Counted from the stretch's first letter, positions 1,472 through 37,139 are shown. The stretch: DNA of 64,000 bases from a bacterium (GCA_965213685.1 CBDBZY010000064.1:512001-576000); one strand, 5' to 3'. A program made the numbers and translations. The notes: generated by a model from the sequence alone, not told the origin.

Positions 1472-2629
1472 AAGTATGAAAAACATTTTCAAAAAATGTA
1501 TAGGGATGTAGGGATGGCCATGCCAAAAACTACAGAAACTAGGTGTAGGGATGGCAGTGTGCAGGCAAGACATGTTATACAAAGACTACACAACTAACCC
1601 CATCCCTACATCTTTTTTTATATCTGAAATCATTCTGTGAGTTATGCTACAAGATTACTGGGAAGAGCAATTTTTGAGCCAAAAAAAAAAGATGTAGGGA
1701 TGGGGTTAGTTGTGTAGTCTTTGTATAACATGTCTTGCCTGCACACTGCCATCCCTACACCTAGTTTCTGTAGTTTTTGGCACGGCCATCCCTACATCCC
1801 TATACATTTTTTGAAAATGTTTTTCATACTTGTTTGCATTTCTTTTTTTGCACAAGGGTATGTATTGTTCTTGCCACTGAAGCTTCTTTCAGAGTCCAGC
1901 AAACAAATCAGTGGTCATAACAGCCATTGCTAAGGCGGGTAGGGGTAGGGAGGGGCTTGAACACGGTCATTTCTGACTGAGTTGGGGGCTGAGTCCCTCT
2001 ACAAATTCTTGAGCTAGAGTAGCTACATATGTACCTCACTGTATCTAACTGGCCAACTCATCCCCGCTACATAATAGTATAGTGAAGTAAGACGCTGCTC
2101 GAACGCGCCATCAGATATGAGCAGCCTTTGCTACGTCTCGCGAACCTATAATTAATAGGCGTGGCTTCGCGAGGCCCGCCCTCACGTGCTTACCGTTTGC
2201 GCCACGTGACAGTAACTATTACAAAATGGTTGGGAAGTTGTCGGGGACGTCTAGTTTCTGCCCATTTGGGAACGTACTAAGAGTTTTATTAGCGCAGATC
2301 GTACTTGGTAGTGATTACAGTGGATCCGTGAAAGAACTACGGTGATTACTTCAGCCAGTTTTGAGATACGTTAGTCTAAAGAAATCTCTGAAGAAGAATA
2401 GGAAGAAAGACAAAACGACCTTTGGAGAGTTTTCTGGTAGTAAGTCAAGGGATGCATTTTAGCTACTTGGGGGGTATTGTTGGGTAGAGATCCACTGGAA
2501 TAGAATAGCTAGGAGCCCAGAAAGGCTTAGAACGCGAGCGTTCGCGAGTTAAGAAGGCTTTCCTATGTACACGCACTATGGGCGTGTCGGCGCCATCCCT
2601 ACATAGAGAGTCTACCGACTCTCTGATAA
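1472..2629 (+). mobile_element. Palindrome-ended non-autonomous element, copy 1 (Helentron/HINE-like architecture)
   Basis: Inverted arms of about 148 bp (1472-1619 and about 1684-1831). The far end has CCATCCCTACAT (2593-2604) followed by the stem-loop AGAGAGTC-TACC-GACTCTCT (2605-2624). The body matches copies at 5597-6755 and 29676-31570. Confidence 0.75.
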
Positions 2630-3050: not shown

Positions 3051-3455
3051 TTTATCGTTTATATCTCCTATTCTCCTTCCTACACTGCAAAAAGGAGATG
3101 TAACTTTGCTGTTTTTATCTCAGTGCAGCTGAATGACATCATATTACTCCCACACTGAGTTCTTGTTTCTTCTACACTGCAAAAAATTTCATGGTTATTT
3201 TAACCAATAAGAATAGTTATCTCAGTTGCACATTTGTCCTCTCAACACTTGGCACTGAACAGAGGTATAAAAAATGTGCAAGATGTGTAGGATATCACCA
3301 AGGAGGGATTGAGTGATAGAATACATGACAGTCCATTAGTCTACTGAGCATGACAGAGGAGTGAGTTATCCTATACTCTTGAGATTGAAGCTGAATGACA
3401 TCACGTCACCCCCCACACAGAGTTATCCTATACTATTGAGATGGAAGGCTTGTGG

Positions 3456-3503
3456 CATAGATAATATAGACGCGTAACCCCCTACGCGTTCATACTATCT
3501 ATG
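3456..3503. mobile_element. 48-bp P-superfamily-like mini-MITE
   Basis: CATAGATA...TATCTATG termini, internal palindrome, 7-bp direct repeat CTTGTGG on both sides. An inverted duplicate lies at about 4001-4048. Confidence 0.7.
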
Positions 3504-4160
3504 CTTGTGGGCAAAGTGTAGGGTGTCTACAGGAAATTGACAGGGGATGGGTAAACAGCCCATGATGGGGGGTCAGTGTGGGGGTGGCTTGCACATGCGT
3601 ATGACCTTTGACCGATTCTTGTACGGTCAGAGTATGGTTATCTCATGAGCTCAATTCTACCAATATGTTCACACTTTTCTCAGTTGCATATTATCATATC
3701 TGCTATACTCTGTGGAATGTGTAAGGTGTCTCCAAAGTAATGGGTGTCGCGACATGTACTTAAAGTGTGATGGGTTGGAACTTTCATGATCAATGCTGTG
3801 GTCATGGATGATCACTTGGCACTGAACAGAGGTATAAAGAATGTGCAAGATGTGTAGGATATCACCAAGGAGGGATTGAGCGGTAGAATACATGACAGTC
3901 CATTAGTCTACTGAGCATGACAGAGGAGTGACCCCCCATCATGGGCTGTTTACCCATCCCCTGTCAATTTCCTGTAGACACCCTACACTTTGCCCACAAG
4001 CATAGATAGTATGGACGCGTAGAGGGTTACGCGTCTATATTATCTATGCCACAAGCCTTCCATCTCAATAGTATAGGATAACTCTGTGTGGGGGGGTGAC
4101 ATGATGTCATTCAGCTTCAATCTCAAGAGTATAGGATAACTCAGTGTGGGGGTGACATGA

Positions 4161-4273
4161 TAGCCTCGTTCCCAGGCTCTCCCCCCTAGCGCACACGTAT
4201 GACCTTTGACCGATTCTTGTACGGTCAAAGGTCATACGCATGCGCTAGGGGGGAGAGCCTGGGAACGAGGCTA
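4161..4273. mobile_element. 113-bp palindromic MITE, Academ(H)-like
   Basis: TAGCCTCGTTCCCAGGCTCTCCCCCCTAGCGCA and its reverse complement form the termini; perfect 9-bp TSD GTGACATGA (4152-4160 and 4274-4282). Confidence 0.85.
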
Positions 4274-4770: not shown

Positions 4771-5596
4771 CCGATGACTCCGCGCTGAGCAGTCATCTCT
4801 TATTACACTCGTTCTTCCCACGGAGCACAGAGGCCTCCTCCTCGCATCCCTGTTTCCGAGCAAAAGTCACTCCGCACATAAGGATGTTCCATGAACCATG
4901 CAATTAAGGGGCACGTTTGAGCTATACCACATGGTTCTGTGAGGTATGGGTGACAGCGATTGTGTTATGTCATAAGTCATAACGCATTCGAAATTTGTGT
5001 GGGTGCTGTCTGTATCTCGGAATGCTGGGGCAGTGACTTCCTCCACGGCCCTCAAGTTACTATGCTTTGTCTTAATTCCCAGGATCAGCTGATAGAATCT
5101 TAAAGAGTGGGCCTGATTCCCAGGTACAATTACTGGCTGGATCAAGCAGCAACAGAATGATGAAGAAGTACTGCTCGTGCACTTCGTAAACTTCGTCCAT
5201 AACATATTTCTAGTGTTGTATATTTTCTGTTTAATTTATATACTGGTAGTAGATCTATGGTGTCACATCTCACATTGGCATTATGTGTATAGCCATGTCC
5301 ACCTGAAATGGATCAGTACTGACCTAGACCTAGACCAATCTCTTTACCCAGCCTAGCTGGTACGCCACAACAAACCACGTAGGGTATTCACACAGTAAGT
5401 TGTTAATATGGGGAACATGACAGGCCTTCCTTGTCATCTTCTCAACTCCCCCCCCCCGCTTCCTCTTTCCTCTTATGCGCCTGCTACTCTCCTCTCCATA
5501 TGTTAAGTAGATCTAGTTTTTCCCTGCCCGTTCTTGTTTTGCCTTGCCTCGCAGCGCATGCCCGTGAAATACGAACCTTTCCGTCGCAGCAGCGAC

Positions 5597-6755
5597 ATAT
5601 CAGAGAGTCGGTAAACTCTCTATGTAGGGATGGCGCCGACACGCCCATAGTGCGTGTACATACAAAAGCTTTCTAAACACCCCTGCGCTAGCGTTCTAAG
5701 CCTTTCTAGGCACATAGCTACCCTATTCAGGCGTTTCTCTACCCATAGATACCTCCCAAGTAGCTAGAGTCTATCTACAGACTTCCTGCCAGGGAACGGC
5801 TGAACCGTCGGATTGTTCATCTTTCTTAAGAGATTTTTTCAATTGACCTACGCCCAAACTGGCTAAAGTTATCACGTTGGCTTTTGTACGTATGTCCTTC
5901 ATTCCTGTATGCGTAGTGCCTTTTACTACCAGAATGTTCGTACCTTCTCGATTCGATTCCGAGCAAAACGCAGTAGCCCCAGACTCTTCCCCACACTTAG
6001 AAGCCATTTTCTAATATAATGTCACGTGGCGGAGTTTTGAGCACGTGACGGCTGACCCTGCATGCGCGCGCCCCACGCGCGAAGCCAAGCCTAGATCTTT
6101 GACCTAGCTCTGTACAAGTAGCATCGTACTATTAAAGCTACACCTATTTTCGCTAGAGCACCTACAATAGCTACTGTAGCAACTGATTTAATTTTCCTTA
6201 TGTTTGTATGTTGATGATGCTTGTTTGATGTAGGCAGTCGCATACATGCAGTGAGTATATAGCTAAGAACTTTTTAAAGGGGCTCAGCCCCTTCCTCAAG
6301 TGGTGGTCCTCAACTTCTTCTTGCTATGTACTCCCAGCCCATGACACATAGCAAAAGCTGTCTGTGGTCACGAGTTTGTTTATTAGTGCCTGAAGGAAGT
6401 GCACTTGAACAGCACCCTCCTATATGGTGTACTATTGTACAGCAAAAAATGACACAAACAAGTAAATAAAACATTTTCCAAAAATGTACAGGGATGTAGG
6501 GATGGCAGTGCCAAAAATCACAGCAACTAGGTGTAGAGACAGGGCATACAAACACTGCACAAATAACCCCATCCCTACATCTTTTTTTGTGCGTGACCTA
6601 TTCTTTATTTATGCTCTGAGATTACTGGGAAACGACATTGTGCATGAAAAAAAAGATGTAGGGATGGGGTTATTTGTGCAGTGTTTGTATGCCCTGTCTC
6701 TACACCTAGTTGCTGTGGTTTTTGGCACTGCCATCCCTACATCCCTGTATATTTT
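5597..6755 (-). mobile_element. Palindrome-ended non-autonomous element, copy 2
   Basis: Terminus ATATC-AGAGAGT(cggtaa)ACTCTCT-ATGTAGGGATGG at 5597-5633; palindrome arms at about 6481-6588 and 6647-6755. Confidence 0.75.
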
Positions 6756-6955
6756 ATTTACTTTAATATAGAAGAGTTTCCAACCTGGGTAGCCTGGTAG
6801 CCCGGCCTAGCATTTTGCACAGGCACATGATGCCAGTGGATACAACAGAGCATGGCTATATTTCGAACGCAACACTGGCGTAAGAAGTAGAGGGGCTGGG
6901 AGGGCTACAGCCCCTCCCCCCACCATGTTTTTGGAAAGGGCCACACCCACTCAGT

Positions 6956-9247
6956 ACACCATCAATGTTCGGACGCTCTCTCGCTGCTGTCGCTCAATGC
7001 GTGTATTTTTCTGTGTACCTAAATGATAGTTCATAACCAGATACTCCACTACTAGGATTGGGGCAAGTCCTCGTGCCCCCGTTTTTTCGCTACTGGGCGA
7101 CAAAAATAGATATCGGACACAGGTATGTTCGGAACTGAGAATGTACCACCGGACTCACGCGAAACGTTACTCCACCGTACCGAACAACGCGGTGGAGGAC
7201 ACCACTCCCTAACACCCGACAACTGCGCTTGCGTCCCATCACATACTAACCTTTGACCTCGACGATCGGCTGCCTAAAACTGATCATTCACCGCTATTGT
7301 CCGCACGTACGAATAATGGTAAGACAACAACGAAAATGATGGAAAGGCAAGTATTCATACGGAGATCGGTCACAAGTAAAGCTAAAACTATCTGGCTTGG
7401 CTTCACTGACACGAACGCCCACGCAGCAGTCGTACCAGCCCCCGCAGTGGATCCACTTCAGTGGCGTAGGATGATTGTTTCATTAGTGGGGGCACTCCAT
7501 CAATATGCGGTCTAGATGAGAAGGCGTGGCTCCGCGCACTTAAGATACGGCGCAGTTACGCACGACCTTTGACCCCGTATTTGCGTGGACACGACACATC
7601 CACAGACGGTTCTATTATCTATGACGCATCGCGATGCAGCGCGTGACGAGAAGACTGCGAGTGAGGCTAGAGCCAACGTCTGGGTTAGCTCAAGGCAAGC
7701 TAAGTAATTTCTCTACTACATAGTACTATTGCTTGGGACATGAAGATACGGCTAAGTCATTACATACGCCTGCGCTCCAGCGAAATTGCCCCCCCCCTTC
7801 CCCCAAGTTTTAGTGTGGGGGGCACTAATTTCGCTGGAAAGTAGGCGTATGTAATGACTTGGCCATATCTTCATGTCCTATATATGTGAGGCACCATGTA
7901 TAAATCTAAGGCTACAATTATAGAGAGAGGCCACAATTATTGTTGTGAAGCTACATTAATATACAAATGTAAGACTGTGAAGTACATGTAGGTTTGTCAC
8001 ATGCAGGTCACACGAAATCATGTGATAGCTAACCAGCCTCATTAAAATGGCTACTAGAGAGGCTTTAGAGTTGACAGTTAGTGTTGCTGCAGGTGCAGTA
8101 TAGCAGGCAGTGAAGAAGACATTTATTATGATCAAGAGTGAGAATAATGTGTAGTGCATGTGCTAATAAGACTAGCAAGTGAATTGATGAAATGGAGGCT
8201 TATGATACTCCATCATTTTGTAACACATCCACTCACCATTCAAAATGACACATTACCATAAACTCCTATTCCACAAATGTGAGTCAATTCACTTGCAAAA
8301 TTATATTAGTACATGCATTACACAACAACAATTATTTTGACTCTTGACCATCATAAATGCCTTCTTCACTGAGCATGATGCCTGCAAGCTGCAAGTTGCA
8401 ACTGCCCCTGCAACGACACTAACTGTCAGCTCTAAAGACTCTCAAGTAGCAACTATAATGACATGATTTCATGTGATCTGCATGTGACAAACAACCTCAC
8501 ATTTATAAATGTAGCCTTACATTTGTTTCACATTTCTAAACGAGGCCTCATACACACAATTTCCCACACAATTCCCATAGATAATAGAACCGATCATTCA
8601 TTATCTATGGACGCGTCATGTTCCACGCAAATACGGGGTCAAAGGTCGTACGTAACTGCGCCGCATCTCACGTGCGCGGAACCACGCCTTCTCATCTAGA
8701 CCGCATATTGATGGAGTGCCCCCACTAATGAAACAATCCTCCTACGCCACTGAAGTGGGTCCACTGCGGGGGCTGGTACGACTGCTGCGTGGGCGTTCGT
8801 GCCAGTGAAGCCAAGCCAGATAGTTTTAACTTTACTTGTGACCGATCTCCGTATGCCTTTCCATCATTTTCCGCTGCCGTCTTACCATTATTCGTACGTG
8901 CGGACAATAGCGGTCAATGGTCAGAATTAAGCAGCCCATCGTTGAGGTCAAAGGTTAGTATATGATGGGACGCAAGCGCAGTTGTCGGGTGTTAGGGAGT
9001 GGTGTCCTCCACCGCGTTGTTCGGTACGGTGGAGTAACGTTTCGCGTGAGTCCTGTGGTACATTCTCAGTTCCGAACATACCTGTGTCCGATATCTATTT
9101 TTGTCGCCCCGTAGCGAAAAAACGGGGGCACGAGGACTTGCCCCAATCCTAGTAGTGGAGTATCTGGCTATGAACTCTCATTCAGGCACGCAGCGAACTA
9201 CACGCATTAAGCGACAGCAACGGGAGAGCGTCCGAACATTGATGGTG
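6956..9247. repeat. Large inverted repeat (about 650-bp arms) enclosing two further inverted-repeat elements
   Basis: 6956-7600 is the reverse complement of about 8610-9247; ORFs 7297+ and 8907- both begin MSARTNNGKT. Inner palindromes lie at about 7736-7879 and about 7963-8526. Confidence 0.85.
7736..7879. mobile_element. About 145-bp palindromic MITE
   Basis: GGACATGAAGATACGGCTAAGTCATTACATACGCCT...AGGCGTATGTAATGACTTGGCCATATCTTCATGTCC. Confidence 0.75.
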
Positions 9248-9289
9248 TCCGAGATTTGATGGCTTACTCTATAGTTGTCTAGCTGGCTC

Positions 9290-11272
9290 TAATACATTAA
9301 GAAGAAGATGCCTCTTACATCCTACAATCCATAACTCTTCTAAACTACAAATTTCTGAAACACAACTTCAGCATAAAATGTTGGCAGCCAAAGCTAGTTT
9401 TGAAGCAGATTTAATTCAAGAATCTTCTCCAAAGAATATCTCAAGGGTTTATAGATATATTAACAGCATCACTAGGCATGATACAATACCACCAACTGTC
9501 AGCCTGGACTCCCATATCGCCACCTCTGATATTGAAAAGGCTAATCTCTTCAACACATTTTTCCACTCAGTCTTTACACACAGCTCCTACAACTTGCCTC
9601 CTCTAGAAATACTACCCATGCCTCCTTCAACAATTAGTGACATAACTATATCTGAGTCTGACGTTTATGATGCGATGACTTCATTGAACCCAACTAAAGC
9701 AATGGGAATTGATGGAATTGGACCAAGATTACTAAAGCATTGTGCTTTAGCACTGTATCAACCTCTCCACCATCTATTTACTTTGAGCCTTGTTCAGCAT
9801 TATTTGCCCCAAGAGTGGAGATTTCACCTGATCACACCTATCTACAAGTCAGGAAATAAGTCTTCAGTGAAAAAATATAGACCTATCTCACTCCTCTGCA
9901 TTGTTTCTAAAGTACTTGAAAAAATTGTTTATGACAAAATTGTTTCATTTGTTTCCAGATCCATTTCTTCGTGTCAGTTTGGTTTCAGGCAGAATCACTC
10001 CCCTCTTCAACAGTTGCTACTATTCTTGAACTCTGTACATGAGTCCTTCAGCACAACTACACAGACTGATGTTATCTACCTTGATTTCAAGAAAGCTTTC
10101 GATAGCGTTGCACATAATGAGTTGCTCGTCAAACTATGGTCTTTTGGCATCCAAGGAAATCTTTGGAAATGGTTTAGAGGTTACCTTACTTCAAGAATGC
10201 AGTGTGTGTCTATAAATACTTCCATCTCAGCCCAATTACCTGTTATTTCTGGAGTGCCTCAAGGTAGCATTCTTGGCCCACTATTATTTTTAATCTTTGT
10301 GAATGACCTTCCTCCATCAGCGTCAACCTCAAGTGTTTTTCTCTTTGCAGATGACACTAAATGTCTCAAAACTATCCGTAACATCTCTGATTGTCTTTCT
10401 ATGCAGAAAGATCTGCAAAACCTAACAATATGGAGTCAGTGCTGGAAATTGATCATGAATTTCAATGTTGCAAAGTGTGCTCTCCTCCGCTTCTCCTCTG
10501 GATGTTCATCTGTTATCTTCAATTACACCATCAATGACAACTTAATCTCTGCTCAAGAAACTCACAGAGATCTAGGCATCATTATGTCCAGTGATCTCTC
10601 ATGGAGAGAGCACATGAAAAGTATTCTGTGCAGAGCTTACAAAACTCTCAACCTTGTTCGACGCTCATTTAGCAGAGGACACAGTCCTCAAACCAAGAAG
10701 ATCATCTATTTGTCCTTAATTCGTTCACAGCTTACATATTGTTCACAGATTTGGCGTCCCCACCTTCTGAAAGACATAGTAGCTCTTGAAAAGATCCAGC
10801 GCCGTGCAACAAAATATGTTCTGAATGACTACACATCAGACTACAGATCTCGTCTTATTGCTCTCCACATCCTTCCCTTGATGATGCAACTAGAGCTATT
10901 TGATGTCATGTTCTTTATTCGATGTCTGAAAGCACCAACTGATGCCTTCAACATATATGACCATGTTACCTTTCACACTAGCTCTACACGTTCTTCCACC
11001 CACCTCAAGTTGAAACATGTTTTGTCAAGAACAAACTCTGCAAGACATTTTTATTTCAACAGAATTCCTAGATTGTGGAATTCTCTGCCTACCTTTGACT
11101 TGGACCAGTCCATTTCCTCTATTAAGAGAGAGGTAATGCGTAACGCACTTCTGGCCATTAGTTTCCACTAATGGACCCTCAGTACATCTGTCTTTGATCG
11201 TATCACCACACTATCCACTCCCTTTCATTTCTGTACTGTGAAGCATAATAATAATAATAATAATAATAATAG
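9290..11272 (+). mobile_element. 5'-truncated CR1/L2-group LINE with open RT ORF (9378-11171) and (TAA)n tail
   Basis: RT motifs YRPISLL, YLDFKKAFDSV, GVPQGSILGP, LFADD; 3' end CTGTACTGTGAAGCA(TAA)n; paralog of the element at 41230-44051. Confidence 0.95.
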
Positions 11273-17389: not shown

Positions 17390-20300
17390 CTACTGCCTAG
17401 CCACGAGTTCATAGGCAGGTTCCTGTGTCCCAGTTCCAGTCTGTGGTATGGCATGGGGACATACATGCTTTTGGGAAGGGTCAGGTGCAGAGGTGTGCTG
17501 TGTCTGTGGCTGGTTCAGGGCCACCAGCTCATACTCATGCCTCTGGCCTCCCTCCTGAGGGTCATGTGATACCACACCATAGGCCAGGTTACTTGATGTG
17601 GACATGGAAACATCACCATTGGCTGCTCTGGTGATCTCACTGCAGAGAGATTTGAGTAATTGCTAGTACGTGTATGTAGGGCATATCCGATCATCCTGAC
17701 TTACCTGTTATGACTAGATTTTCTTCGGGACTTCAAGACAAGAAGAACTACTACAACAACAGCTACACCAATAACTGTAGATACACTAACAGCTACTGCC
17801 ACAGCTACTACTCCACCTAGTACAGCAGAGGTCCTGGTGGTCTTTGTGAAAATATATTGCCTCATTGATACTAGCATAATTAAATAGTTAATGCTGACCT
17901 AAAAGATGGAATCCCACAGCACTCTTCTCCCCTGCTCCAGCTGAGTTTGTAGCCCACAGAAGTACTGAGTATGATCCTATCATCAGGTCATTAATCACCA
18001 CACTGTTTTGCATTGGGTGTGTCGATATATTGTTTGTCTTTGTAGAGTCACTGTAGGTCACTGTGTAGCTGAGGACATGGCCCCTGGCCTCATCAGGTGA
18101 GAGCAGAGCCCACTCCACTCTCACATGAGTACTGTCAAGCACACTGGTACTCAGATGGCCAGGGGCTCTGGGAGCTGGAGCAATGCACAAGTGGACACTC
18201 GGACAATGACCACATACAGTGTTGGCCATCAGCTGCACTCACTCAGCTCCTCAGTGAACACATACTCAGTTGCCCTCCACTCTCCCTCTCCAGCACTGTT
18301 CACTGCAGCCACATACACCCTGTATGGCACTCCACTGTCTGCAAGAGAGGGAAGGGGTAGTCCTTGCAGTGTGAGAGGAAGTGTATCATTGAGAGAGAAG
18401 CTCACCCAGTTGGCTCACTAGCACACTCTGAGCATGAGCTGGGCCACTGGTCATTAGGTACTGTGAGGATGAGTTGACCCACACAAGGTAGTGGGAGGTG
18501 ACTCCATTGGCCAGCTGGACTGGTCCCCAGGTGATGTCCAGACTGGAGCTGTTTACAGTCTTGACGGTAATATATGACACAGGACCTAAACCTACATGTA
18601 TGCATAGTGTGAGATAAATGTGTGTTATACACAATGACATAGTCCTAATAAATTAAGTTACCTGTGAATAGAGCAACCTCAGACGTTTGTCTGCTGCCCC
18701 CACCATCATACTCAGCTACACATGTGTACTGGCCACCATCTGACATTCTGAGAGGCTGAAAATGTAACTCAAGGGTCGTCACATGCCCACCAGTGCTTGT
18801 GTTGAGAGTGTGGCCTGTGGAGTTCCTCCACCTCAGACCACTTAGTTGTTGATCACAGGGCAAATGTACTGTGCATGCCATTGTGTAGGTGTGCCCAACT
18901 ACAGAGACTCCAGAGGACTGGATTTGAAATGCTGTAAAAGAGACCAGTCTTTTACACCCACTTATATCTGTAGAATATAACTCACAGCTATCTCCTGTCC
19001 TGAAACTCTGCACACCACTTACAGACTTGTCTGCTGTGTTGGTGGCCACCACTTGGTACTGGTAGTTGGTGGCTGGCTCCAGGTTGGATAACTGTACTGA
19101 GTAGGTCACATCTGTAACGATGATGTCAGGTCCACTCTTCTGAGGGTAGCTGGTCAGGTTCAGGCTGTCCTGACTGGTCCCATACTCCACCACATAGGTT
19201 TCAGGAGTGTAGGCTATGGAGGGCACTGTCCACTGGATAGTGGCTCTGTTCCCACTTATAGCAATCACTGCAACATTCTGTGGCGGGTGAGGGGCTCTTG
19301 GACCTGCACACATGTGAAGGAGGAATGAGATGTTGAAACTAGCAAATCAGTACTTACCAATTAGTGAGACAAATGCTTGGTCTGTGCGATGAATGTTGTC
19401 AGTTCCTTCCAGGTCAAACCTGCACCAATACCCAATACTGCCATTGATTGTCTCACTCATAATCAGTGTACTGCTACTCCCATTGTCAGTGTGGAACATG
19501 TCACTGACGGGCAGAAATGAACCACCTCCCACTCCTCTTTTCTTCCACTGCCACGTCCTCCTCAGCTGTTCCCTCCCCTCCAGTCCAGTGACCTCCACTG
19601 TGGCAGAGCAGGTGGCAGTGAATGTGTTGTATGGAGGAACGTCAAGTATCCCAGTGGTGGCTGTTGTCATGATAACAGTCACTCTAGGAACTGTAACGAT
19701 GAGCAATATAGCTCATACATGTATGAACAACATGAAGCATTTAGTCATATGAATATATATCTGCCTTGTGGACAGTCTAGTTCACTAACCTGCTACTTGT
19801 AGAGGTGTATTGTTGGATACTCCTGTCTGAGTCCTCAGATATGTGTACTGTGCTGTAGGACTAAGGACTACTTCACAGGAGTAGGTTCCATTATCATTTC
19901 TGTAGCTGAGAGGAGTGAATTTAGTAGTGCAGCGATATAGAGTAGGAGAGAGTCTTTCAGTGTCAGGACAGCTCCTGAAGCTCCGCCCATTCTTCCTCCA
20001 TTCAACAGATACATTCACATGTGTATCAGTCACAGTGAGCAAGGTCACATCACACTGCAGGGTCAGGTTCAGACCAGCATAGAGTATGTCTGGAGCACCT
20101 AATGCTGTGGCAGTCACTGCAGGTGGGGGCACTGGAGAAGAAAGTTTGGTACTACATATAAATCAACACACTTACACACACACACACATTCATGATGACT
20201 CACCTGTGACTAGCACCACCTCAGACGTTTGTCTGCTGCCCCCACCATCATACTCAGCTACACATGTGTACTGGCCACCATCTGACACTCTGAGAGGCTG

Positions 20301-23300
20301 AAAGTGTAACTCAAGAGCAGTCACATGACCACCAGTGCTTGTGTTGAGAGTGCGGCCTGTGGAGTTCCTCCACCTCAGACCACTCAGTTGTTGATCACAG
20401 GGTACATACGTAATGCATTTCATTGTGTAGTTGTGTCCAACTATAGAGTTTTCAGATGACTGGATTTGAAGCAATGCTGTAAAAGAGTATTTGTTATTTA
20501 TTTGCACAAATTGAAACTGTAGGACATAACTTACAACTGCATATATCTCCTGCCCCAAAACTCTGTGCACCACTTGTGGACTTGTCTGCTGTGTTGTTGG
20601 CTACCACTTGGTAGTGGCTGTAGGACTAAGGACTACTTCACAGGAGTAGGTTCCATTATCATTTCTGTAGCTGAGAGGAGTGAATTTAGTAGTGCAGCGA
20701 AATAGAGTTGGAGAGAGTCTTTCAGTGTCAGGACAGCTCCTGAAGCTCCGCCCATTCTTCCTCCATTCAACAGATACATTCACATGTGTATCAGTCACAG
20801 TTAGCAAGGTCACATCACACTGCAGGGTCAGGTTCAGACCAGCATAGAGTATGTCTGGAGCACCCAATGCTGTGGCAGTCACCGCAGGTGGGGGCACTGG
20901 AGAAGAAAGTGTGGTACTATATCAACACACCTATACACACACTAATGATGACTCACCTGTGACTAAAACCACCTCAGATGTTTGTCTGCTGCCCCCACCA
21001 TCATACTCAGCTACACATGTGTACTGGCCACCATCTGACACTCTGAGAGGCTGAAAGTGTAACTCAAGAGCAGTCACATGACCACCAGTGCTTGTGTTGA
21101 GAGTGTGGCCTGTGGAGTTCCTCCACTTCAGACCACTCAGTTGCTCCCCACCAGACACATGTACAGTGCATGTCAGTGTGTAGTGGTGCCCAACTTCAGA
21201 GTGTCCAGAGCTCTGTATATGTAGTGCTGTGTATACTATGATACACAGCTATTCAATATGATGTACACTGCTTATAGAATTGTTGCACAACTTACAACTG
21301 TCTGATGCAAGGAAAGCATGCACACCACTTGCAGTGGACCTGTCTGCTGTGTTGGTGGCCACCACTTGGTAGTGGTAAATGGCTGGTTCCAGGTTGGATA
21401 ACTGCACTGAGTAGGTCACATCAGTAACAGTGATGTCAGGTCCACTGTGCTGAGAGTCACTGGTCAGGTCCAGGCTGTCCCGACTGGTCCCATACTTCAC
21501 CACATAGGTCTCAGGAGTGTAGGCTATGGAATGCACTGTCCATTGGATGGTGGCTCTGTCATTACAGACCTCAGTAACCATCACATTGTACGGTGGTATT
21601 GGGTTAGTAGGACCTATATGTTTGTGTTGTATGGATGTTATTATTGTAGTAAAAGATCAAGACCAGAGAATACATTTCTATTGAGCTCCCTGAAATACAT
21701 CTCTTATCAACGAATTCATAGTGATTCATACCTTGTACTTCCAGAGTTGTTTCATTGTATCCTTGAATACTTCTTTCTGGAATAAACCTAGCTCTACAAC
21801 GATATAGCACTTTCTTCATTGTGTCAGTCTCAGTGGTGGTCAGAATGCTCTGGTAGCCATCCTCAGGGGAGCCCGTTGTCACATACTTAGTGGAAGGAAC
21901 AGCCGAGAAAGATGGTTGATCAGATGAAGCCTCTGCCTTTCGTACCCAGTACACAGTCATCTCCAGAGGAAGAGTCTCCCCCTCAACTTCAGCACTAACA
22001 TTGCAGGTCACTGTGAACTGGTTGTAGGGAGATATATTGAGGATATGAACTGAGGAAGGAGAGGACTCTACCATCACTGACGGAGCTGCAGGAAGAGTGG
22101 GTGGAGGAAATCCTTGTTCATTAGGAATATACCTCACATTTTTGCAACTGTATACAGATACACAGTATGAACTAACCAACCACAGTCAGGTTCATGTCTT
22201 GAGAGGCAGTAGTGGAAGAGAAGGTTCCCTGTAGAGCAAAGACAGTGGCCTCACACTCATACCTTTCACTGTCAGAGGACAGGAGGTGAGTGAAGGACAT
22301 GGTACTCTGAACAAAACCACCAGAACCAACTGGACCAGCAATTATGACTCTGCCAGCGACTCCAATGAACTCACTGCCAGCTTTCAACCACCTCACAGTT
22401 ACACCAACATCACCACCATCCACCACCCCAGTCAACAGAACACCACACACAACAGTGATGTCATTGCCAACATAGGGCACTTTGTTGTTATTGATTCCCA
22501 CACTCAGTGATGGTGGTGGAACTAAAGAAAAGGTATCACAGTTAGCACACAGGAATGAGTAACTACAGTCCATCACTCACTGATAACAGCAACAGTGACA
22601 TTGCCACTCCCCTCAGGAATCTCATCCATAGTGTAGGTAACTGTGCAGGTGTAATCTCCTGCCTGGGAGAGAGTGAGAGGGTTGAGTGTGTGTTGGCTGG
22701 TGTAGGTACTGCCACTGCCCACCACACTCCCAGTGGTGGAGAGACCTGGCCCCTCCCACTGGACAGTGGGTGTCTCTAACACTCCAGTGGGGAGGGTAAT
22801 GGTGCAGGTGAGGGTGAGGGAGGAGCCAGCTGTGGCTGAGTCTTGGGCTGTTACAGTCACTGTGGGAGATGTAGCTAGAGGAATAGAAGCATTTTAAAAG
22901 TGGATTAGGTTCATGTGAACAAAAAATGATAAAAGTACAAGTTGCAGTTTGCCGAGGGCGGACATGATCACGTGATACACGCTCTTAGAAAGTTAAGCGC
23001 CTACCTCCTATTCAGGTTGGCTCTCCGTTTTCGTAGCAAGAGCATGCAAGACATACATATCTTTCAATAGCTCTGATTGAGCCAAACACGAATACTGCGT
23101 GAACCCTGTTGAACCCCTAGGTCGCTGAAGAGATACAGCCGTTTGAAATTTAGACAGCCGTATCTCTCTGTTCCCTCCGGGGAAGGGAACAGTACGGTTA
23201 GGATGAGAATGGTCGAGCCTACAGCATAATCCTTGATTACGATATCGGCTGCTCCTACACTGTAGCAATCCAGGTGCGGGTTCACTTTTATGTACATACG

Positions 23301-26300
23301 AATGTAGAGGGTGTACTTTGAACTCGAAAGCATGTAATTATTACGATACAGTACGTGCGCGTGGTCATGTGATAGTCATGTCGAACCGCCTCCGCCAGAC
23401 AACCACAATAAGCAGGCTAATTGCCCAGTACATTTGAGAGCAGCAGGCACGTATTGTACTGCCTCCTGCTGCAAACCTATGTACTGACCTAAGTGAGAGG
23501 CCTCTAAGAGACATACATGGCTTCAAGTGTAAAAGAGAAACTGAATATGAAACTGTGATAGTACTACATTCTGAAGAACCACATTTCAGCTGGGAGATAT
23601 GTGGCAGTTATCTACATGTTCTGTAAGGGTGATCTATGTATAGTTAGTGCATGTAGAGCAAAGACCACATGTGGGGCTCTAGCTATGGTAGTATTAAGGT
23701 ATGATGTGCATAAATACCTTGTGGCCAATATCCTTGCAAGTATATCTACTGTTACCAGCTAAAACTACACATGAATAGAGAACATTTAGGAACATTTTAT
23801 AGGCAGCCATCATCTCATGTTGCAGGGGCATAGGAAGATGCTTTTGGATGGGGGGGCTGACCTTGTGGTGGCCCAACCAGGCAATTTTTTTTATGTGCAT
23901 GCTCTGAAATCAATCCTGGTGCATTCTGAGACAAATTATAATTGATAGGAATTATACTTAAAATGGGCCCATACTCTTAGAGCAAACTAGACAGCTACAG
24001 CTACTAAAATTTCAGCTAAAGCAGCTAATTGCTAAAGCAGCTTCACAGTATCTATTACAAGTGCAATAAATGGGGGGTGTGGCCCTTCCATAAACATGGG
24101 GGGGCATTATAAAGCCCCCCCAGCCCCCCTGCTTCTTACGCCAGTGTGTTGCTATTTTTGACAGCTTGTTTGATGTTATTTGTTCATTAGATGTTTCTTA
24201 TTTTTCTAATTATTTTATTCTTCTTGGTGATTTTAATGTTCATATGCTGTCACCCTCTTCTCTTTGCTATCATCTCAATTCTATTTTACATAGATTCTCT
24301 CTTGTACAGATTGTTACTGAGCCCACTCACATCAAACACGATGGATCTTCATCCCTGCTAGACCTTGTTATAACTTCTACTCCGGAAGCTGTTTCCACTT
24401 GCTCTACTCTTCCTCCATTGGCCAATTCAGATCACTATGGAGTCCTTATCAATTTTCAGTGCAAGCTGGTTAGAGTAACAAGGAAAAGAAGATTTGTATG
24501 GAGGTATGAGCATGCTGATTTTACCTTGACTTGTGCACTGTTGAGATGCTTTGACTTTGGGCACCTTTTTGATGGAAGATCAATTGATATGTGTTGGACT
24601 CAATGGAACAATGCATTTTTGGAAGTTATGAATAGCTGCATTCCTAAGGCCATTTTGCCTGAAAGGAAGTCACCCACATGGATGAGCAAGAAAATTGTTC
24701 AACTAATAAGGAAAAGGAACTACCGTAGATCGGGAAATTTTCGTCGTTAAAAATATTTCGTCGGTGCCTGTAACGTCGAAATTTTAACACGCGAAATATT
24801 TTCCACGTCGAAAAATAAGAACACGCGAAATATTTTCCAAGTCCAATAATAAGATCGCGAAGCACTTCAGCGAGTAGCCTCGTACCCAGGCCTTCAACGC
24901 GGGGACCTGGGTACGAGGCTATTCAGCGAGTACACATGTGAAGCAAATGGCTGTGTTGAACCAATCGGTTCTCTACCTGATCCTAGAGGAGACTCGATCC
25001 ATGTACGCAAGTGTACAGATACCGTAAACGCCGTTAAAATTTTGTCAGGTTTATAAAATTTCGTGTTTTTAATTTTCGTCGGTGTACTGGAGCGACGAAA
25101 ATATTTTAACGCGACAATTTGACAGACGAAAGTTTCTACAGTTGAAAATTTCCCGATCTACGGTACTACTTCAGAAAGCACAAAGCAACCAAGTCTACCA
25201 TCATGCATGGAAAATACAGGTCTCTCAGAAATAAAGTGGTTGCAAGTCTACGTCAGTCGAAGTGCAGTTTTTACATGAATCTCAAGCCAAAGTCAAGCAA
25301 GACTTTTTGGAAAACTGTTAATACTCTTTCTAGAAGTAAGTCAGCCATACCAACTCTTGTTCATAACAATGTTGCTGTTGCTTCCGATAGGGGTAAGGCT
25401 GAAGCTCTTAATGCCCATTTCACAAAGTGTTTTAGCTATTCTGTTCCTCCTATCATCTGTGGTAGCTGGCACTATTCCACTTCTGATGAGATCTCAGACC
25501 TACTTTGCAGTGAGGAGGAGGTAGAATTTCTTCTTTCATCTGTTGACCCCAACAAAGCCACTGGCCCTGATGGCATATCAGCTAGAATGCTGAAATCAAC
25601 TGCTGCTAGTATTGCACCTGCAGTTATGGCAATCTTCAATTTGTCTCTGATTCAAGGCCAGTTGCCTATGGAGTGGAAAGTGGCTCAAGTCATACCAATA
25701 CCCAAGTCTGAACAACTATCTAATCCTACTAACTACAGACCAATTTCCTTGCTCTCCATTCTGAGTAAATTGTTAGAAAGGTATGTGCAAACCCACCTCC
25801 TCAACCATTTTCACTTCTCAAAAGGAAAATCCACTACTGGTGCTCTCCTGTCTGCAACACATGCCTGGCATATGGCTCTTGAAGCTGGAGAGGATGTTTG
25901 TTGTGTATTTTGGACTTGACAAAGGCTTTTGATAAGGTTCCGCATTTATCTCTCTTACAAACACTTGCTGAACATGGAATTAATGCACACTTATTGAATT
26001 GGTTATATGACTATGTAAGCCAGAGGTCCCAGTTTGTAGTTGTGAATGGTGAGAGGTCAAAGTGCTCAAATGTCATTTCTGGAGTACCTCAAGGATCTGT
26101 GCTTGGTCCTCTTCTCTTCATCATCTACTTGGATGGCATAACAAAACTTCCACTTCATGATGGATCTTGCTTATTGTTATATGCTGATGACATCCTACTG
26201 TATCGCCAGACACAACATCATGAGGACTATCTACTTCTGCAACAGGATATTGCTAGTCTGGAATTATGGCTGCAGCAAAAATATTTGCAGTTGAATGTTA

Positions 26301-28030
26301 CCAAATGTAAGTACATGGTTTTGACTAGGAAATACCATCCCGATCCCTCACATCCTTAGCAATCCAAGGAGCTCCTATTGAGAGAGTTTTTGAGTTTAAA
26401 TACTTAGGAGTATGCTTGACTCACAACTTATCTTGGAAATCTCATATACTACAGATATCTAAGAAGGCTAGGAAGCAGGCAGGAATTATTTACAGAACCT
26501 TTTATAAATATTCAAATCTTGACTGCCTGAAGCAATTGTATCTGTCATTTGTGAGACCTCATCTTGAATATGCTGCACCTGTGTGGGATTCCTACTGTTC
26601 CTCTCATGTTGATATTCTAGAGAAAGTCCAAAAGTTTGCTCTTCGTATTTCCTACAAGGCTTGGAAGGAACAGTACACATCTCTTCTTGAGAGATCTGGA
26701 CTGCAGCCTCTGGCTATACGAAGGAAACTTTTGACACTCTGCTACCTATATCATCTGATACAGGGTAATGTCACTTTTTCTGAGGCTCCAATTATTCCTA
26801 GGAACCTTGACCCCCAGCTTAGAAACTTCTACCCACAACTTCTTTGCCAGCCATATTGTACATCCACCTCATACATGTTCTCATTGTTTCCACATGTTAT
26901 TGCATTATGAAACGCTTTACCTTCTCCATTGCATTGTGTTGATACATTTTCTGAGTTTAAGTGTAATGTTTTGTCCTTCCTGCAGGCTGATTGTGTTGTG
27001 TTGGTGTAATATGGGTGCATTGTTTATTAGGAACATGCTACTAATATATCCCTGCGTGTATGTGCAAACTTTTCATAGGAAAAAAAAGGTATACTGAAAG
27101 AGTATGGCCTGGAAAATGAGAATACAGATTGATAGTGGTTAAGTATATTTGATTCCTTTATCCACGTGCACAACATTCACGATTAACTGGTTCTCTGAAT
27201 ACCTTTACAGTGGAACCCCTCTAAAGCGGACACCATTGGGACCAGGATTTTTTTCCGCTATAGCGAAGTGTCCGTAGCTCAGGGGTTTAGGTGCTCACGT
27301 GTGTGAATGCGCGCGCATGTAGCTAGTGTCCGTATAGGCTATACACACTCATAGGCTGAGGTCAAGATGCGAAAATCTGACTTCGCTGGGAATCCAATCG
27401 TTCGTGAGAAGCCGCCACATGTACCGTACATCACAGATACGTGTAGTTTAGTCTTGACCTACGTGAAGATCATGAGCTTCAATGCTATATATACTTACCA
27501 AGTTGGTATTATTGCTGTATCTACAGTCTAGTTTGTTGTAGCTATTGGGATATAGATGTCCGTAATACAAAATATCGAGGTGTCTGTATCTGAGGGGCTG
27601 ATTTGTGAACTTGAACTTTATATAGGCATGCGTTTGAGACCTTTGATGTTCCTCGTTTTTCGGGAGTCCAGCATAAAGGGATTTACTTTACAATACTAAA
27701 CTGTCCGTTGTGCGGGGTTTTCTAGTATTGCGAGTGTACAATTGGGAACGGATTACTGTCCGTTATACGGAGTAGCGTGGTGTCCGCTATTCAGGGGTTT
27801 CTAATGTATTCAGTCTATGGAGAAACGATCGGGACTTTCAGAACTGTCCGTTATATCGTGGGTGTCCGCCGTTGAGGGGTGTCCGTTAAGCGGGGTTCCA
27901 CTGTACTCCTTAAACCATAAAATACTCACTCACCATTTCCTGCTGTGTCTCCTATGTTGGTAGTAGCCAACATCAAGGCAGAGAGTAGAAAGAAGTTTAC
28001 TGTAACTTGTACCATGCTTCTCTTCTGCAT
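17390..28030 (-). CDS. Type-I membrane receptor: signal peptide, multiple Ig-like and FN3 domains, TM helix, Tyr-motif cytoplasmic tail (about 1395 aa if the broken exon is skipped)
   Basis: GT-AG exons read by eye with consistent phases: 28030-27934 (signal peptide MQKRSMVQVTVNFFLLSALMLATTNIG), 22874-22581 Ig, 22521-22177 Ig, 22085-21732 Ig, 21613-21296 FN3, 21226-20957 Ig, [20896-20535 chimeric, in-frame stop], 20476-20204 Ig, 20131-19790 Ig, 19690-19358 Ig, 19303-18986 FN3, 18931-18662 Ig, 18591-18406 plus 18338-18243 FN3, 18174-17899 FN3, 17870-17705 TM (AVLGGVVAVAVAVSVSTVIGVAVVVVVLLVLKSRRK), 17639-17390 tail. Ig exons have C..W..(D)xGxYxC motifs. The first exon is the least certain. Confidence 0.85.
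23823..24146 (+). mobile_element. hAT-like MITE in receptor intron 1
   Basis: Imperfect TIRs CAGGGGCATAGGAAG and CTTCTTACGCCAGTG; no clean TSD seen. Confidence 0.55.
24723..25163. mobile_element. Tc1/mariner (Tc2/pogo-like, CCGTA-ended) MITE
   Basis: TIRs CCGTAGATCGGGAAATTTTC and GAAAATTTCCCGATCTACGG with a TA TSD. Removing it restores the LINE frame (RKRNY|YFRKHKATK). Confidence 0.9.
24875..24921. mobile_element. 47-bp Academ(H)-like mini-MITE
   Basis: TAGCCTCGTACCCAGG..CCTGGGTACGAGGCTA with a perfect 9-bp TSD TTCAGCGAG. Confidence 0.85.
27208..27903. mobile_element. Tc1/mariner (pogo/Tigger-like, CAGT-ended) MITE
   Basis: TA|CAGTGGAACCCC..GGGGTTCCACTG|TA with internal GTGTCCG subterminal repeats. 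Confidence 0.85.
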
Positions 28031-29675
28031 GAGGTGTTTGTGCACAACTTCTACATATGTTAACAACATCTGTTACACTGCAGACACTCTACATATTGCA
28101 TACATACATTCAGTCCCAAAGGAAAAGTAAAATCTAGTGTGGGAGAACAAAAACGTAGTGTGGGAGAAGAAAAACTTTGTGTAGGAGAAGTAAAACTCTC
28201 TTGACAGGAATGCAACTGAGATAACCACAACATGTTAAAAATAGCTATCTCAGTTTTTCTTTGTAGGTAGGTTGAAGTCTGTCATGTGCTCCACAAGACA
28301 TTCCTATCAGCCTGACAGGGATTTCACTTTCTGAGAAGTTGGCATAACATAATGCCACATATCAGCTGCAGGGTAATGACAAACTCTGGAATAGAAAACA
28401 CTCCTGCTGTCTGCAAGTGCAAGAACAAAGATTATTAGACCATGACCTGATCTAACATGCCACTGTCAATTACTCTTGTGTCCCAAGAGAGTGCTCATAC
28501 CTTGCTTATCACACATGCATCTTGTTCAGTAAGCAATGACTGGAACGAGAGAAGAAATATCTCTACTACTATCAAAAGAGCTGCAGGAGAAATGCAACAA
28601 AACTATTGTCATAGTCAACAGAGGTGAATATGGTGAAGATGTTCCTTTGACATAAGCATCCATACAGTCGTTAACCCATTAAGGGTGGTGTGACATTATG
28701 AATATTAATAAGGTGCTTGGTTGCTATGGGACAGTATTTCTGAAAGTACACTAGCTAAGGACGCCGGATTGGGCTAGAAGCGCTGCACACACCACAGCTG
28801 CTATACGAAGTTTCAGAACTGTAGCTTACTCTGTCACCGGAAGGTGAAGCGGTCAATTCTCGACTTTCTTTTTCATAAAACTCCCTAACTAAACCATCTA
28901 CGTTCTTGAAACTTGGTTCCTAGGGCCATTTCCACTAGCCCAATCGATTAACAGAGCCGTTTTCGTTCTACGCAGTACGCAAGCATGACTTTTTGAACTT
29001 TTCTCAGAATTGGAGCGTTGAATTTGAAAAAAACCCTCTGTTACGGTCTTCGGTACCGCCCCAGGATGACGCAAACGGCTGGGCATCCTTTTCCGGACGA
29101 GCGCAGAGGAGTTTTACAGAGTTATGCATGCTACATACCTTACACGGGCCTTATTGATTCTATGGTTTCCGTAGTTGCCATAGCAAAACCATAGGAATGC
29201 TAATTTATCTGGTTGTGAGAAGGGCGCTATACGCGTAAGCGCCCGTAGGCAACGTAACAGCGCAGCTGTGGCATATGCATGGTTTCCACTAATTAACCGC
29301 GAAGCCCAAGCGCTGCACATTCCTTTGCAGCAACGTCGTATCCATAAAAAATACATTTTGATCCCCCGCTTATGCATGGTAGTCAAGAAATATAATACGG
29401 ATTGTTGGGAAAAAAGAAAGTACAGAAGGCCATCACTTGGTGGTTGTTTTCTGAATACTAGGTTGGGAACATGAACAGGGCAGTTGGTGCTGAGAAGTTG
29501 GAGATTAATGTCGGTGTTGCCTTGGACATGTGCAAATGCAGATTGATTGTACACGTTATGGTAACAGAATCATGAAAGCACAGAAGTACAAACACTCAGC
29601 GCAATGGACTCATATATATGTGCATGCCCAGCTTTGCAATGACATTGGGCGTAAACACATGCAGGTAGGTTCTTC

Positions 29676-31570
29676 ATATCAGAAAGTCGGTAGACTCTCT
29701 ATGTAGGGATGGCGCCGACACTCCCATAGTGCGCGTACATTGGAAAACCTTCTTAACTCGCGAACACTCGCGTTTTAAGCCTTTCTCGGCACGCGAATGG
29801 CCTATTCAACCGATTCTCTACCCAACGATACCCCACAAGTAGCTAGAATGCATTCCTTGACTTACTGCCAGATAATGGACGAAAGGTGATTTTGTTTTTT
29901 TTTCTTATTCTTCTTCTTCTTCTTACGAGATTTCTTTCAAACGACTTTACTCGAAACTGGCTGAAGTAATCACCATAGTTCTTTCACAGATCCACTGTAA
30001 TCACTACGAAGTATGATCTGTGCTAAAAAAATGTTAGTATCTTCTCTACTATGGGCAGAATCTAGATCCCCAGACAACTTTACCATATTTGGAAGCCATT
30101 TTGTAAGCACATGAGGGCGGGCCTCGCGAAGTCACGCCTATTAATTTATCGATGGCTTCACATAGCAAAGGCTACTCGATCTTTTGTCACTGAAAAGAGC
30201 GCGTTCTTACTTCGCCGTACAATTGTACAACGAACTTCAATGTAACTGGTATGAGTTAGCTAGTCAGATACACTGAGGAAACTACTCTAGCTCAGGACTT
30301 TTTAGAGGGGCTCAGCCTCCCAACTTCGTAAGTGACTGATTATGAGGTTTAAGGTAGGAAGGCCCCTAAGTTGCGTTGCATGAAAAGGTATTTTTCTAAC
30401 ATTCTCCCCATGTGCAGATTTACGGTATGGCGTTATTCTCTGGATATTTCCTGCTTCGAACCATCTGTACCACCCGCAAGATGCATATCGCTAAGTTTAA
30501 AAAAAAAATTCCGCAAGAACTACGCATGATAGAAGGATGAACCTTCGCGACTGTATAAAACACTTCTGGCTACACACGAATTGCGGAAGCCTTTTTGCTA
30601 GTTAGTCCTTGTTTTGGATGAAAAACGCATTTATTTTCTAGGCAAAATATTTGAAAAAGCTTCCTAAGAATGTTTTGTGTATGGTCCGTGAAGTCGTTTG
30701 ACGCCAACTGCGCATATTTCGGTTGGTCGTATCTTGCGGAGTTGATGGCCAACTCGAAAGACAGAAATGTGGAACCGGATCCTCCCATTTATATCACGTG
30801 CGCGGTATGGCACACGTACGTACACGTGCGTACGGTATGAGTACACAGTCTGCGATTCCCTAAAGGGGGCGGTGTCTCCGTATATTCTTACTACACGTTA
30901 GTAAAATGTTATGACGTAATTATTTGCGCAGCGCCGCACGTCGAGTTGGAACGACATTTAAAACATTTTTCCACTAAACACTTTGCAAAAATTCCACTGA
31001 ATAATGGTATTTCGCTAACCAGTACAACAACAAAAGTGTGTTAAAAATAGATTTGGCCAGATTCAGAACTCAAGTATTTCCTACCGGCCCACTCGTATCT
31101 CCGCCGCTGACTAGTAGCAATGGCTGTTCTGATCACCGATATGTTTGTTGGATGAAACTTGCAAGAATATTTTGTGTACTATTGTACAAGAAAAAGTACA
31201 CAAACAAGTATGAAAAACATTTTCCAAAAATGTAGAGGGATGTAGGGATGGTAGTGCCAAAAACCACAGAAAATAGGTGTAGAGATGGCAGTGTACAGGC
31301 AAGGCAGGTTATAAAAAGACTACACAAGCAACCCCATCCCTACATCTTTCTTTTTCCTTGAAATTGTTCTGTGAGTTTAGCTATGAAAATTCTGGGAACA
31401 TCAATGCCATGCGATGAGAAAAAGAAAGATGTAGGGATGGAGTTGCTTATGTAGTCTTTTTATAACCTGTCTTGCCTGTACACTGCCATCTCTACACCTA
31501 GTTTCTGTGGTTTTTGGCACTGCCATCCCTACATCCCTCTACATTTTTGGAAAATGTTTTTCATACTTGT
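29676..31570 (-). mobile_element. Palindrome-ended non-autonomous element, copy 3 (with an insertion of about 750 bp at about 30350-31100)
   Basis: Terminus ATATC-AGAAAGTC-GGTA-GACTCTCT-ATGTAGGGATGG; palindrome arms at about 31204-31355 and 31419-31570; the body aligns with copy 1 in reverse. Confidence 0.75.
30349..31090 (+). mobile_element. TTAA-GG-starting repeat (Kolobok-like), related to 37857-38480
   Basis: Both copies start TTAAGG(T/C)AGGA.G.CCCTAAG and share the internal ATGCATATCGCTAA..AAAAAAAATT motif. Confidence 0.4.
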
Positions 31571-31611
31571 AATATTATGTTCTCATGAAAATATCACACC
31601 TTTCTTTATAC

Positions 31612-37070: not shown

Positions 37071-37139
37071 AGTGGAGAAAGTTATAATTGTGACAGTGCA
37101 GCCCCTTCATCCATATACAGCTCTGGAACACGCTGCATC

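Follow-up and report, generated by a model that had tools for sequence, protein, structure and literature searches.

Helentrons and HINEs, the elements of the HLE2 group, feature short inverted repeats and a stem-loop at the right end, and are not flanked by target site duplications (TSDs) (excerpts of PMC4067079, PMC11417382 and PMC7492417). The terminal inverted repeats of HLE2 elements measure 12-16 nt, the stem-loop follows the right repeat and insertion takes place at T-T (excerpts of PMC11417382). The left end of HINEs is formed by a subterminal inverted repeat (subTIR) and by a complementary inverted repeat (IR) of 7-12 bp, located 1-12 bp away (excerpts of PMC7492417 and PMC4067079). 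In the Helentrons described from a mite and from Culex the left repeat is found 2-4 nt from the terminus, and runs of T are present at the termini (excerpts of PMC4067079). Canonical Helitrons, or HLE1, start with 5' TC, end with 3' CTRR, have a hairpin about 11 bp before the 3' end and show A/T insertion (excerpts of PMC4067079 and PMC11417382). Here a family of non-coding elements is described, which was found in a 64,000 nt stretch of DNA (GCA_965213685.1 CBDBZY010000064.1:512001-576000, hereafter the window, containing 0 N). The 5' end of these elements is a long palindrome, the two arms of which have evolved in concert, and the spacer separating the arms is inverted relative to the element body in one copy. 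All conclusions on the family rest on three diverged copies within the 64-kb window. Judged by reading frames for the reverse transcriptase and endonuclease (RT/EN) of long interspersed nuclear elements (LINEs), and by immunoglobulin (Ig) and fibronectin-III (fn3) exons, all recognized with Pfam, the DNA of the window is animal.

Structure of the element family

Three copies with one common body were detected by self-BLAST and by a repeat search of the window. They had been proposed in a first-pass annotation, which had placed their ends slightly off; these are now set at 1471/2628, 5598/6764 and 29677/31570. The long terminal palindrome with an asymmetric loop, noticed in the same annotation, is present in all copies. 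It spans about 360 bp as a whole, with arms of 108-153 nt and a spacer of 59-64 nt. The component parts are as follows, the outer arm being the 5'-terminal one.

1471-2628, body sense on the plus strand: copy 1 (1158 bp), the copy with the flipped spacer
1472-1619, plus strand: outer arm of copy 1, with the small stem-loop ACATTTT-CAA-AAAATGT
1620-1683, plus strand: spacer of copy 1, 64 nt, inverted relative to the body when compared to copies 2 and 3
1684-1831, plus strand: inner arm of copy 1, with 1 mismatch in 148 to the outer arm
2592-2604, minus strand: right 13-nt inverted repeat of copy 1, ATGTAGGGATGGC being read on the minus strand
2605-2628, plus strand: 3' stem-loop of copy 1, AGAGAGTC-TACC-GACTCTCT, then the terminal GATA
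5598-6764, body sense on the minus strand: copy 2 (1167 bp), with the 3' stem-loop at 5602-5621 and the right repeat at 5622-5634
6458-6588, plus strand: inner arm of copy 2, with a 19-bp deletion also found in the outer arm
6589-6647, plus strand: spacer of copy 2, 59 nt
6648-6764, plus strand: outer arm of copy 2, with the 19-bp deletion and a private 13-17-bp deletion removing the small outer stem-loop
29677-31570, body sense on the minus strand: copy 3 (1894 bp), with the 3' stem-loop at 29681-29700 and the right repeat at 29701-29713
31204-31356, plus strand: inner arm of copy 3, set by inverted-repeat search and arm alignment
31357-31417, plus strand: spacer of copy 3, 61 nt
31418-31570, plus strand: outer arm of copy 3, with 5 private point differences from the inner arm

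The arms of copy 1 are 148 nt long and 99% complementary, with a spacer of 64 nt. The palindrome of copy 2 (6481-6588/6648-6755) has arms of 108 nt, 98% complementary, and a spacer of 59 nt; its outer arm continues to 6764, past the 13-17-bp deletion. In copy 3 (31204-31356/31418-31570) the arms measure 153 nt, are 97% complementary and are separated by 61 nt. Folded as single-stranded DNA, the palindrome of copy 1 reaches -182 kcal/mol (z -36), and none of 100 shuffles did as well. From outside to inside, the terminus A(A/C)AAGTA comes first in each arm, followed by a 7-bp stem-loop (ACATTTT..AAAATGT) and then by 2-3 copies of a 12-mer, ATGTAGGGATGG, found in the outer arm of copy 1 at 1506 (plus), 1543 (plus, with 1 mismatch) and 1600 (minus). 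The palindrome ends exactly at the 5' terminus of the element, and the junction between inner arm and body is homologous, in 3/3 copies.

The 12-mer occurs 15 times exactly, and 17 times when up to one mismatch is allowed, and all these sites lie within the three copies. By chance 0.41 would be expected, and 0/100 shuffles reach 17. The first-pass annotation listed a 12-mer; the repeat common to the left arm and, inverted, to the right end of all three copies is 13 nt long (ATGTAGGGATGGC). The 3' end of every copy consists of CCATCCCTACAT, a directly adjoining stem of 8 bp with a 4-nt loop, and a final GATA, so the stem-loop placed beside the 12-mer in the first-pass annotation is found in 3/3 copies. 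The end reads GCCATCCCTACAT, then stem-loop, then GATA, and is 93% conserved over 114 nt between copies 1 and 3. The flanks of all three copies diverge right outside A(A/C)AAGTA...CTGATA. Searches for the 12-mer and the 13-nt repeat showed that a left repeat is missing from the body itself. A second 3' hairpin, ACACGC..GCGTGT, was considered as a further feature and discarded, as it is found in copies 1 and 2 and is broken without compensation in copy 3. A literature search for the 12-mer gave nothing relevant among the papers listed, judged by titles and the starts of abstracts.

The 3' stems of copies 2 and 3 are variants, each including one G.T pair which is paired on the body-sense strand only, and mismatched on the other. 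The minimum free energies of sense and antisense folds are -11.2/-10.3 and -9.4/-8.2 kcal/mol. This is a weak hint that the body-sense strand may be the one that folds, the probability of such an arrangement by chance being about 1 in 4.

Concerted evolution of the arms

The arms are 97-99% identical within a copy, and 80-87% identical between copies. Concerted evolution of the arms is an observation absent from the first-pass annotation. When the six arms are compared over 144 core columns, 87 are invariant. At 31 columns the copies differ and both arms of every copy agree; these comprise 12 substitution columns and the 19-column deletion found in both arms of copy 2. The arms disagree at the remaining 26 columns, 17 of which correspond to a single event, the terminal deletion in the outer arm of copy 2. 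What is left amounts to about 8 private point differences, 1 in copy 1, 2 in copy 2 and 5 in copy 3. RNAalifold similarly found 23 of 171 pairs changed on both sides. As arms are alike within copies and changes are mirrored, one arm has to have been repeatedly copied onto the other.

Inversion of the spacer

The spacers are asymmetric, and all three read on the plus strand of the window. Since the body of copy 1 is inverted with respect to the others, the spacer of copy 1 is inverted relative to its body, as had been claimed. Orientation was assessed by pairwise alignment of the three spacers, with 1000 shuffles per pair: same-strand alignments gave z scores of 6.8, 8.6 and 5.5, opposite-strand alignments z scores of -0.9, -0.7 and -1.0. 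The flip is thus found in one copy out of three. The flipped copy 1 also has the cleanest arms (1 mismatch in 148, vs 2 in 108 in copy 2 and 5 in 153 in copy 3). The 8 point differences between arms are each private to one copy. As no arm-specific state is common to the copies, inversion of the spacer only and inversion of the whole palindrome look the same in copy 1.

Relationships and independence of the copies

The palindromes of copies 1 and 3 are 85.5% identical, and that of copy 2 is about 74% identical to either, from which the tree ((c1,c3),c2) follows. On this tree, as drawn from the palindromes, one event, on the branch leading to copy 1, accounts for the flip. Bodies are more diverged. 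By self-BLAST, copy 1 aligns inverted to copy 3 (1980-2628 with 30325-29677, 75.0% over 685) and to copy 2 (2342-2633 with 5875-5594, 75.7% over 292), and copy 2 aligns directly to copy 3 (5596-5875 with 29675-29973, 72.2% over 299). In the comparison of copies 1 and 3, element ends are better kept than the interior: the 3' 114 nt are conserved at 93%, the arms at 84-87%, the body at 75% and the spacer at about 64%.

Neither TSDs nor coding capacity had been noticed at first, and both results hold. No direct repeat is present in the flanks of any copy (0/3), and no stop-free frame longer than 101 aa lies within any copy; a 133-aa stop-free frame runs from copy 3 out into the flank. No RNA family matched at gathering score within the copies. 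At relaxed E-values the long stem matched plant microRNA-precursor models only, far below gathering scores, because of a generic hairpin effect. A prokaryotic genome collection was scanned with the 3'-end 22-mer and with the arm pattern and gave 0 matches, as expected.

A repeat found at 842-1397 and, inverted, at 32835-33495 suggested that copies 1 and 3 could belong to an inverted segmental duplication. This was rejected. Near copy 1 the repeat (844-1392, about 550 bp) stands between direct repeats identical at 48/48 positions (796-843 = 1393-1440), and is therefore a recent separate insertion. Its copies are 86-98% alike, and element bodies are 75% alike. Repeat and element are separated by 74 bp at copy 1 and by 1264 bp at copy 3, the two intervals not being homologous, and the 3' flanks of the two copies are unrelated. 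The three copies are separate, independent insertions.

Relationship to Helentrons and other Helitron-like elements

By its sequence features the family is a non-coding, non-autonomous DNA transposon with asymmetric ends. Much of its structure is shared with HINEs and DINE-1, which are likewise non-coding, have an 11-15-nt inverted repeat near both ends and a stem-loop directly after the right one, form a 5' hairpin from the left repeat and a nearby complementary IR, lack TSDs, and have ends better kept than the interior. A T|T junction is also shared by two of the three copies. Against the repeats of about 11-18 nt typical of HLE2 elements, those found here at both ends measure 13 nt in 3/3 copies; the 3' stem-loop abuts the right repeat in 3/3, with 4 nt left between it and the terminus; flanks show no TSD in 3/3; and the IR complementary to the left repeat is present in a greatly enlarged form. 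HINE and DINE-1 5' stems measure 7-12 bp and their loops 1-12 nt, whereas arms are here 108-153 nt and spacers 59-64 nt, and each arm hosts 2-3 copies of the repeat. Central tandem repeats are common in HINEs; none was found here, copy 3 having only a (TTC)7.7 microsatellite. Most simply, the palindrome would be an enlarged version of the 5' subTIR+IR hairpin of DINE-1/HINE elements.

Several features do not fit this assignment. From the 5' terminus to the first left repeat there are 35 nt (1506 vs 1471), unlike the 2-4 nt of described Helentrons. Copies 2 and 3 are inserted at T|T junctions, copy 1 at G|A. There are no runs of T at the termini, which are A(A/C)AAGTA and CTGATA, and no central tandem repeats. 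No Rep/helicase or transposase was found in the window; the Pfam analysis, which covered 42 of its 67 stop-free frames of 120 aa or more, revealed LINE RT/EN and Ig/fn3 domains only. The Helentron/DINE-1 layout envisaged in the first-pass annotation stands for the inverted repeats, the stem-loop and the missing TSD; the position of the left repeat and the absence of T runs do not match it. The element probably works like a non-autonomous HLE2 element, and it is filed as a probable variant of this group, its membership being unproven because the window hosts no Rep/helicase partner and only two of the three sites are T|T.

Other Helitron-like groups resemble the family less or in part. Canonical HLE1 termini are absent: inverted repeats are present, and the elements start with A(A/C)AAGTA and end with CTGATA. 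The 7-bp stem-loop found here upstream of the first left repeat of an arm recalls HLE2-reverse elements (FoHeli3/4/5) and proto-Helentrons of Fusarium and Phytophthora. Compared by description only, these have a 5' stem-loop, and no 3' one is mentioned in the excerpts of PMC11417382; the family described here differ from them in also keeping the canonical 3' stem-loop.

Origin of the matched arms and of the flipped spacer

We favour, with a probability of roughly 0.5, the hypothesis that an HLE2-like element had its arms homogenised and its spacer inverted by template switching or recombination, no dedicated hairpin-resolution step being involved. The element would be moved by an HUH Rep/helicase encoded elsewhere, through rolling-circle, single-strand transposition. 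A short HINE-like 5' hairpin would have been enlarged to a palindrome of about 360 bp, with 2-3 repeat copies per arm, and the two arms would have been repeatedly copied onto each other. The 60-nt spacer would have been inverted once, on the branch to copy 1. Both arm copying and flip could result from polymerase template switching, or recombination, between closely spaced arms. Template switching would be a general property of inverted repeats, and the single-stranded phase of the element may help it.

When a polymerase switches template from one arm of an inverted repeat to the other, arms are reported to be homogenised and spacers inverted (excerpts of PMC8604942); expansion of inverted repeats is also reported (excerpts of PMC13100816). 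One generic process would accordingly account for the size of the palindrome, for the concerted arms and for the flip, and it fits the observation that arms are most closely matched in the flipped copy. Both signatures, concerted arms and inverted spacer, are those of template-switch mutations at IRs; these were described from yeast, at short IRs of genes and promoters, whereas here arms of about 150 nt, within a mobile element, have been kept matched over a divergence of 13-20% (excerpts of PMC8604942 and PMC13100816). Two considerations weigh against this hypothesis. These two papers concern short IRs (PMC8604942, PMC13100816), vs the arms of about 150 nt found here. Moreover, a hairpin step coupled to transposition predicts homogenisation of the arms across diverged lineages equally well, and flipping in situ and flipping coupled to transposition are not separable from three copies.

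The best surviving alternative, which we still hold to be rather unlikely, is rolling-hairpin replication, in which the palindromic end is regenerated at each transposition through fold-back or hairpin resolution, flips and flops as parvovirus telomeres do, and has its arms reset. HUH enzymes drive both Helitron-like transposition and the terminal resolution of parvoviruses. Parvovirus rolling-hairpin replication similarly features terminal palindromes, with an asymmetric centre found in both orientations and short motifs repeated in the stem, and the HUH enzyme class is plausibly common to both systems. This alternative is favoured by the spacer being found in both orientations relative to the body, and by the palindrome boundary coinciding with the 5' terminus in 3/3 copies, as expected if a nick site sets the arm edge. 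Arms 97-99% alike within copies of lineages 13-20% apart, together with the mirrored 19-bp deletion, would be the outcome of a reset comparable to that of long terminal repeats (LTRs), and the 2-3 12-mers per arm may be candidate Rep-binding sites. On the other side, the flip is seen in 1/3 copies and counts as one change on the tree, and the copies share no arm-specific marker by which a flip of the whole palindrome, as in parvoviruses, could be distinguished from a flip limited to the spacer. Parvoviruses have hairpin telomeres at both ends, and an HUH/SF3 Rep nicking the inner boundary of the palindrome; here the other end is an 8-bp stem-loop only, and the copies are integrated and devoid of viral genes. 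Hairpin transfer swaps the arms, and does not alone homogenise them. No flip/flop in Helitron-like elements was found among the papers listed by literature searches, as far as titles and the starts of abstracts tell. Flip/flop had been taken in the first-pass annotation as a hallmark of hairpin resolution; by itself it is not, as template switching is also reported to invert spacers (excerpts of PMC8604942). Generic template switching already covers both observations, and the rolling-hairpin reading is not needed. A eukaryotic HUH transposon family with a long 5' hairpin, copied arm to arm and resolved at each cycle to give flip/flop and reset arms, is in the same way unlikely.

It is improbable that the palindrome is a separately mobile, symmetric mini-element, either inserted in one or the other orientation beside the body, or inverted by a transposase acting on two equivalent ends. 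The inner arm mimics the right end of the element, as CCATCCCTACAT has, no more than 6 nt after it, a 7-bp stem-loop with a short tail, and the palindrome alone has therefore the architecture of both a left and a right end. The body itself lacks a left repeat, and Helitron-type elements can bypass their 3' end and capture downstream DNA. The junction between inner arm and body is homologous in 3/3 copies, however, and the composite of palindrome and body therefore predates the divergence of the copies. A direct repeat around the palindrome alone was found in 0/3 cases. Sensitive profile searches of the window retrieved six arms, all within the three composites, and no solo palindrome. Solitary palindromes with a TSD of their own, the case set against its own model by the first-pass annotation, are accordingly missing from the window (0/3 solo, no TSD).

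A cut-and-paste origin is similarly improbable. The family would then be a DDE transposon or a miniature inverted-repeat transposable element (MITE), and the 12-mers, which are multiple, subterminal and found in both orientations, would be transposase-binding sites as in CACTA or hAT elements; En/Spm-type elements carry subterminal repeats resembling the 12-mer array. Features of DDE MITEs or foldback elements are wanting, as TSDs are found in 0/3 cases, around either the whole element or the palindrome, and the extreme termini, 5' A(A/C)AAGTA vs 3' CTGATA, are not inverted repeats. There is moreover a strong asymmetry between the ends, a stem-loop being joined to the right repeat. A TA duplication, as in a Tc1-like element, was considered and discarded: it would fit copies 2 and 3, not copy 1, and a terminal inverted repeat is missing.

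That the spacer orientation in copy 1 is an assembly error is very unlikely: arms of 148 nt at 99% identity, the most perfect of the three pairs (1 mismatch/148), are ambiguous for short reads and could let a graph assembler cross the spacer either way, but the window has no N and runs through long microsatellites, LINEs and other near-perfect inverted repeats, suggesting a long-read or clone-based assembly in which single reads span the 360-bp palindrome.

To our knowledge the transposition chemistry of the Helentron-type group has never been studied directly. If the classification holds, the 5' subTIR/IR hairpin of Helentron-type elements can grow to a palindrome of several hundred bases, kept matched by the lineage, and such matching would point to a function of the folded single strand, for example in Rep recognition or second-strand priming. 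Concerted arms could serve as an internal clock for dating copies, much as LTRs do. A flip coupled to transposition would, if demonstrated, be the first indication that hairpins are resolved in a cellular transposon, and a true rolling-hairpin step would be a mechanistic bridge between Helitron-like elements and parvovirus-type replication. Should the flip come from template switching in situ, the family would be a natural reporter of that mutational process at long inverted repeats.

Body sequences and related fragments

The body includes a conserved CpG-rich block, GGCGTGGCTTCGCG...CACGTG followed by AAAATGG (2140-2215, 6010-6090 and 30100-30150), with two CACGTG boxes in copies 1 and 2. The block resembles a promoter and the start of a first exon, and may be captured host sequence. 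Copy 3 features in addition a private CpG-rich segment of about 790 bp (about 30326-31114), located between the palindrome-proximal body and the remainder, which has neither matches elsewhere in the window nor a long open frame.

A degenerate fragment of about 110 bp (37142-37250, minus strand) is homologous to the 3' part of the body (78-83%) and lacks both ends. It is followed by a weak arm-like stretch (37088-37130, E = 0.09). Within the region 37088-37440 (minus strand) the fragment opens with a (GAA)n run, and CCAAT-like and TATA-like motifs precede it. It may represent a rearranged copy of great age, or else be related to host DNA captured by the element.

Other repeats and genes of the window

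Near-perfect inverted repeats are common across the window. A nested large inverted repeat directly adjoins copy 2 (6956-9248), with arms 6956-7336/8868-9248 (381 nt, 93%) and 7356-7589/8622-8855 (234 nt, 96%); more self-complementary stretches are found in it at 7736-7878 and 7992-8492, and it may be a foldback-type element. The region 3246-4273 hosts an inverted repeat (3362-3575 with 4143-3929, 98%), a direct repeat (3246-3364 = 3813-3931, 97%) and a 113-bp palindrome (4161-4273). The palindrome of copy 3 is directly adjoined, at 31600-32230, by a degenerate tandem array of 9/18-bp units (GGTTCCTTGAGTTCC-like).

Three LINE copies with endonuclease and reverse-transcriptase domains were identified (9243-11171, 24094-26910 and 41163-43886). 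The third has an open 907-aa frame with 1377 database relatives, the nearest being 66-80% identical. The first 160 bp of the 844-1392 repeat also match 41006-41182, just upstream of the open frame of this LINE. Both full copies of the repeat, of about 550 bp, adjoin the palindrome end of an element (copy 1 and copy 3, respectively) and have the same orientation relative to it, which is taken as a coincidence. A run of Ig and fn3 exons (18645-22984, minus strand) is part of a large gene of the cell-adhesion type, and includes a tandem duplicate of a unit of about 765 bp (19852-20617 and 20617-21375, 86%). Two tRNA-like sequences matching the Rfam tRNA model (49975-50047 and 61126-61198) stand at the start of a repeat of about 157 bp, the two copies of which share 84% identity. 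The repeat (49975-50255 and 61126-61290) is probably a tRNA-derived short interspersed nuclear element, and ARAGORN predicts a tRNA-Lys at 50181-50255 on the minus strand.

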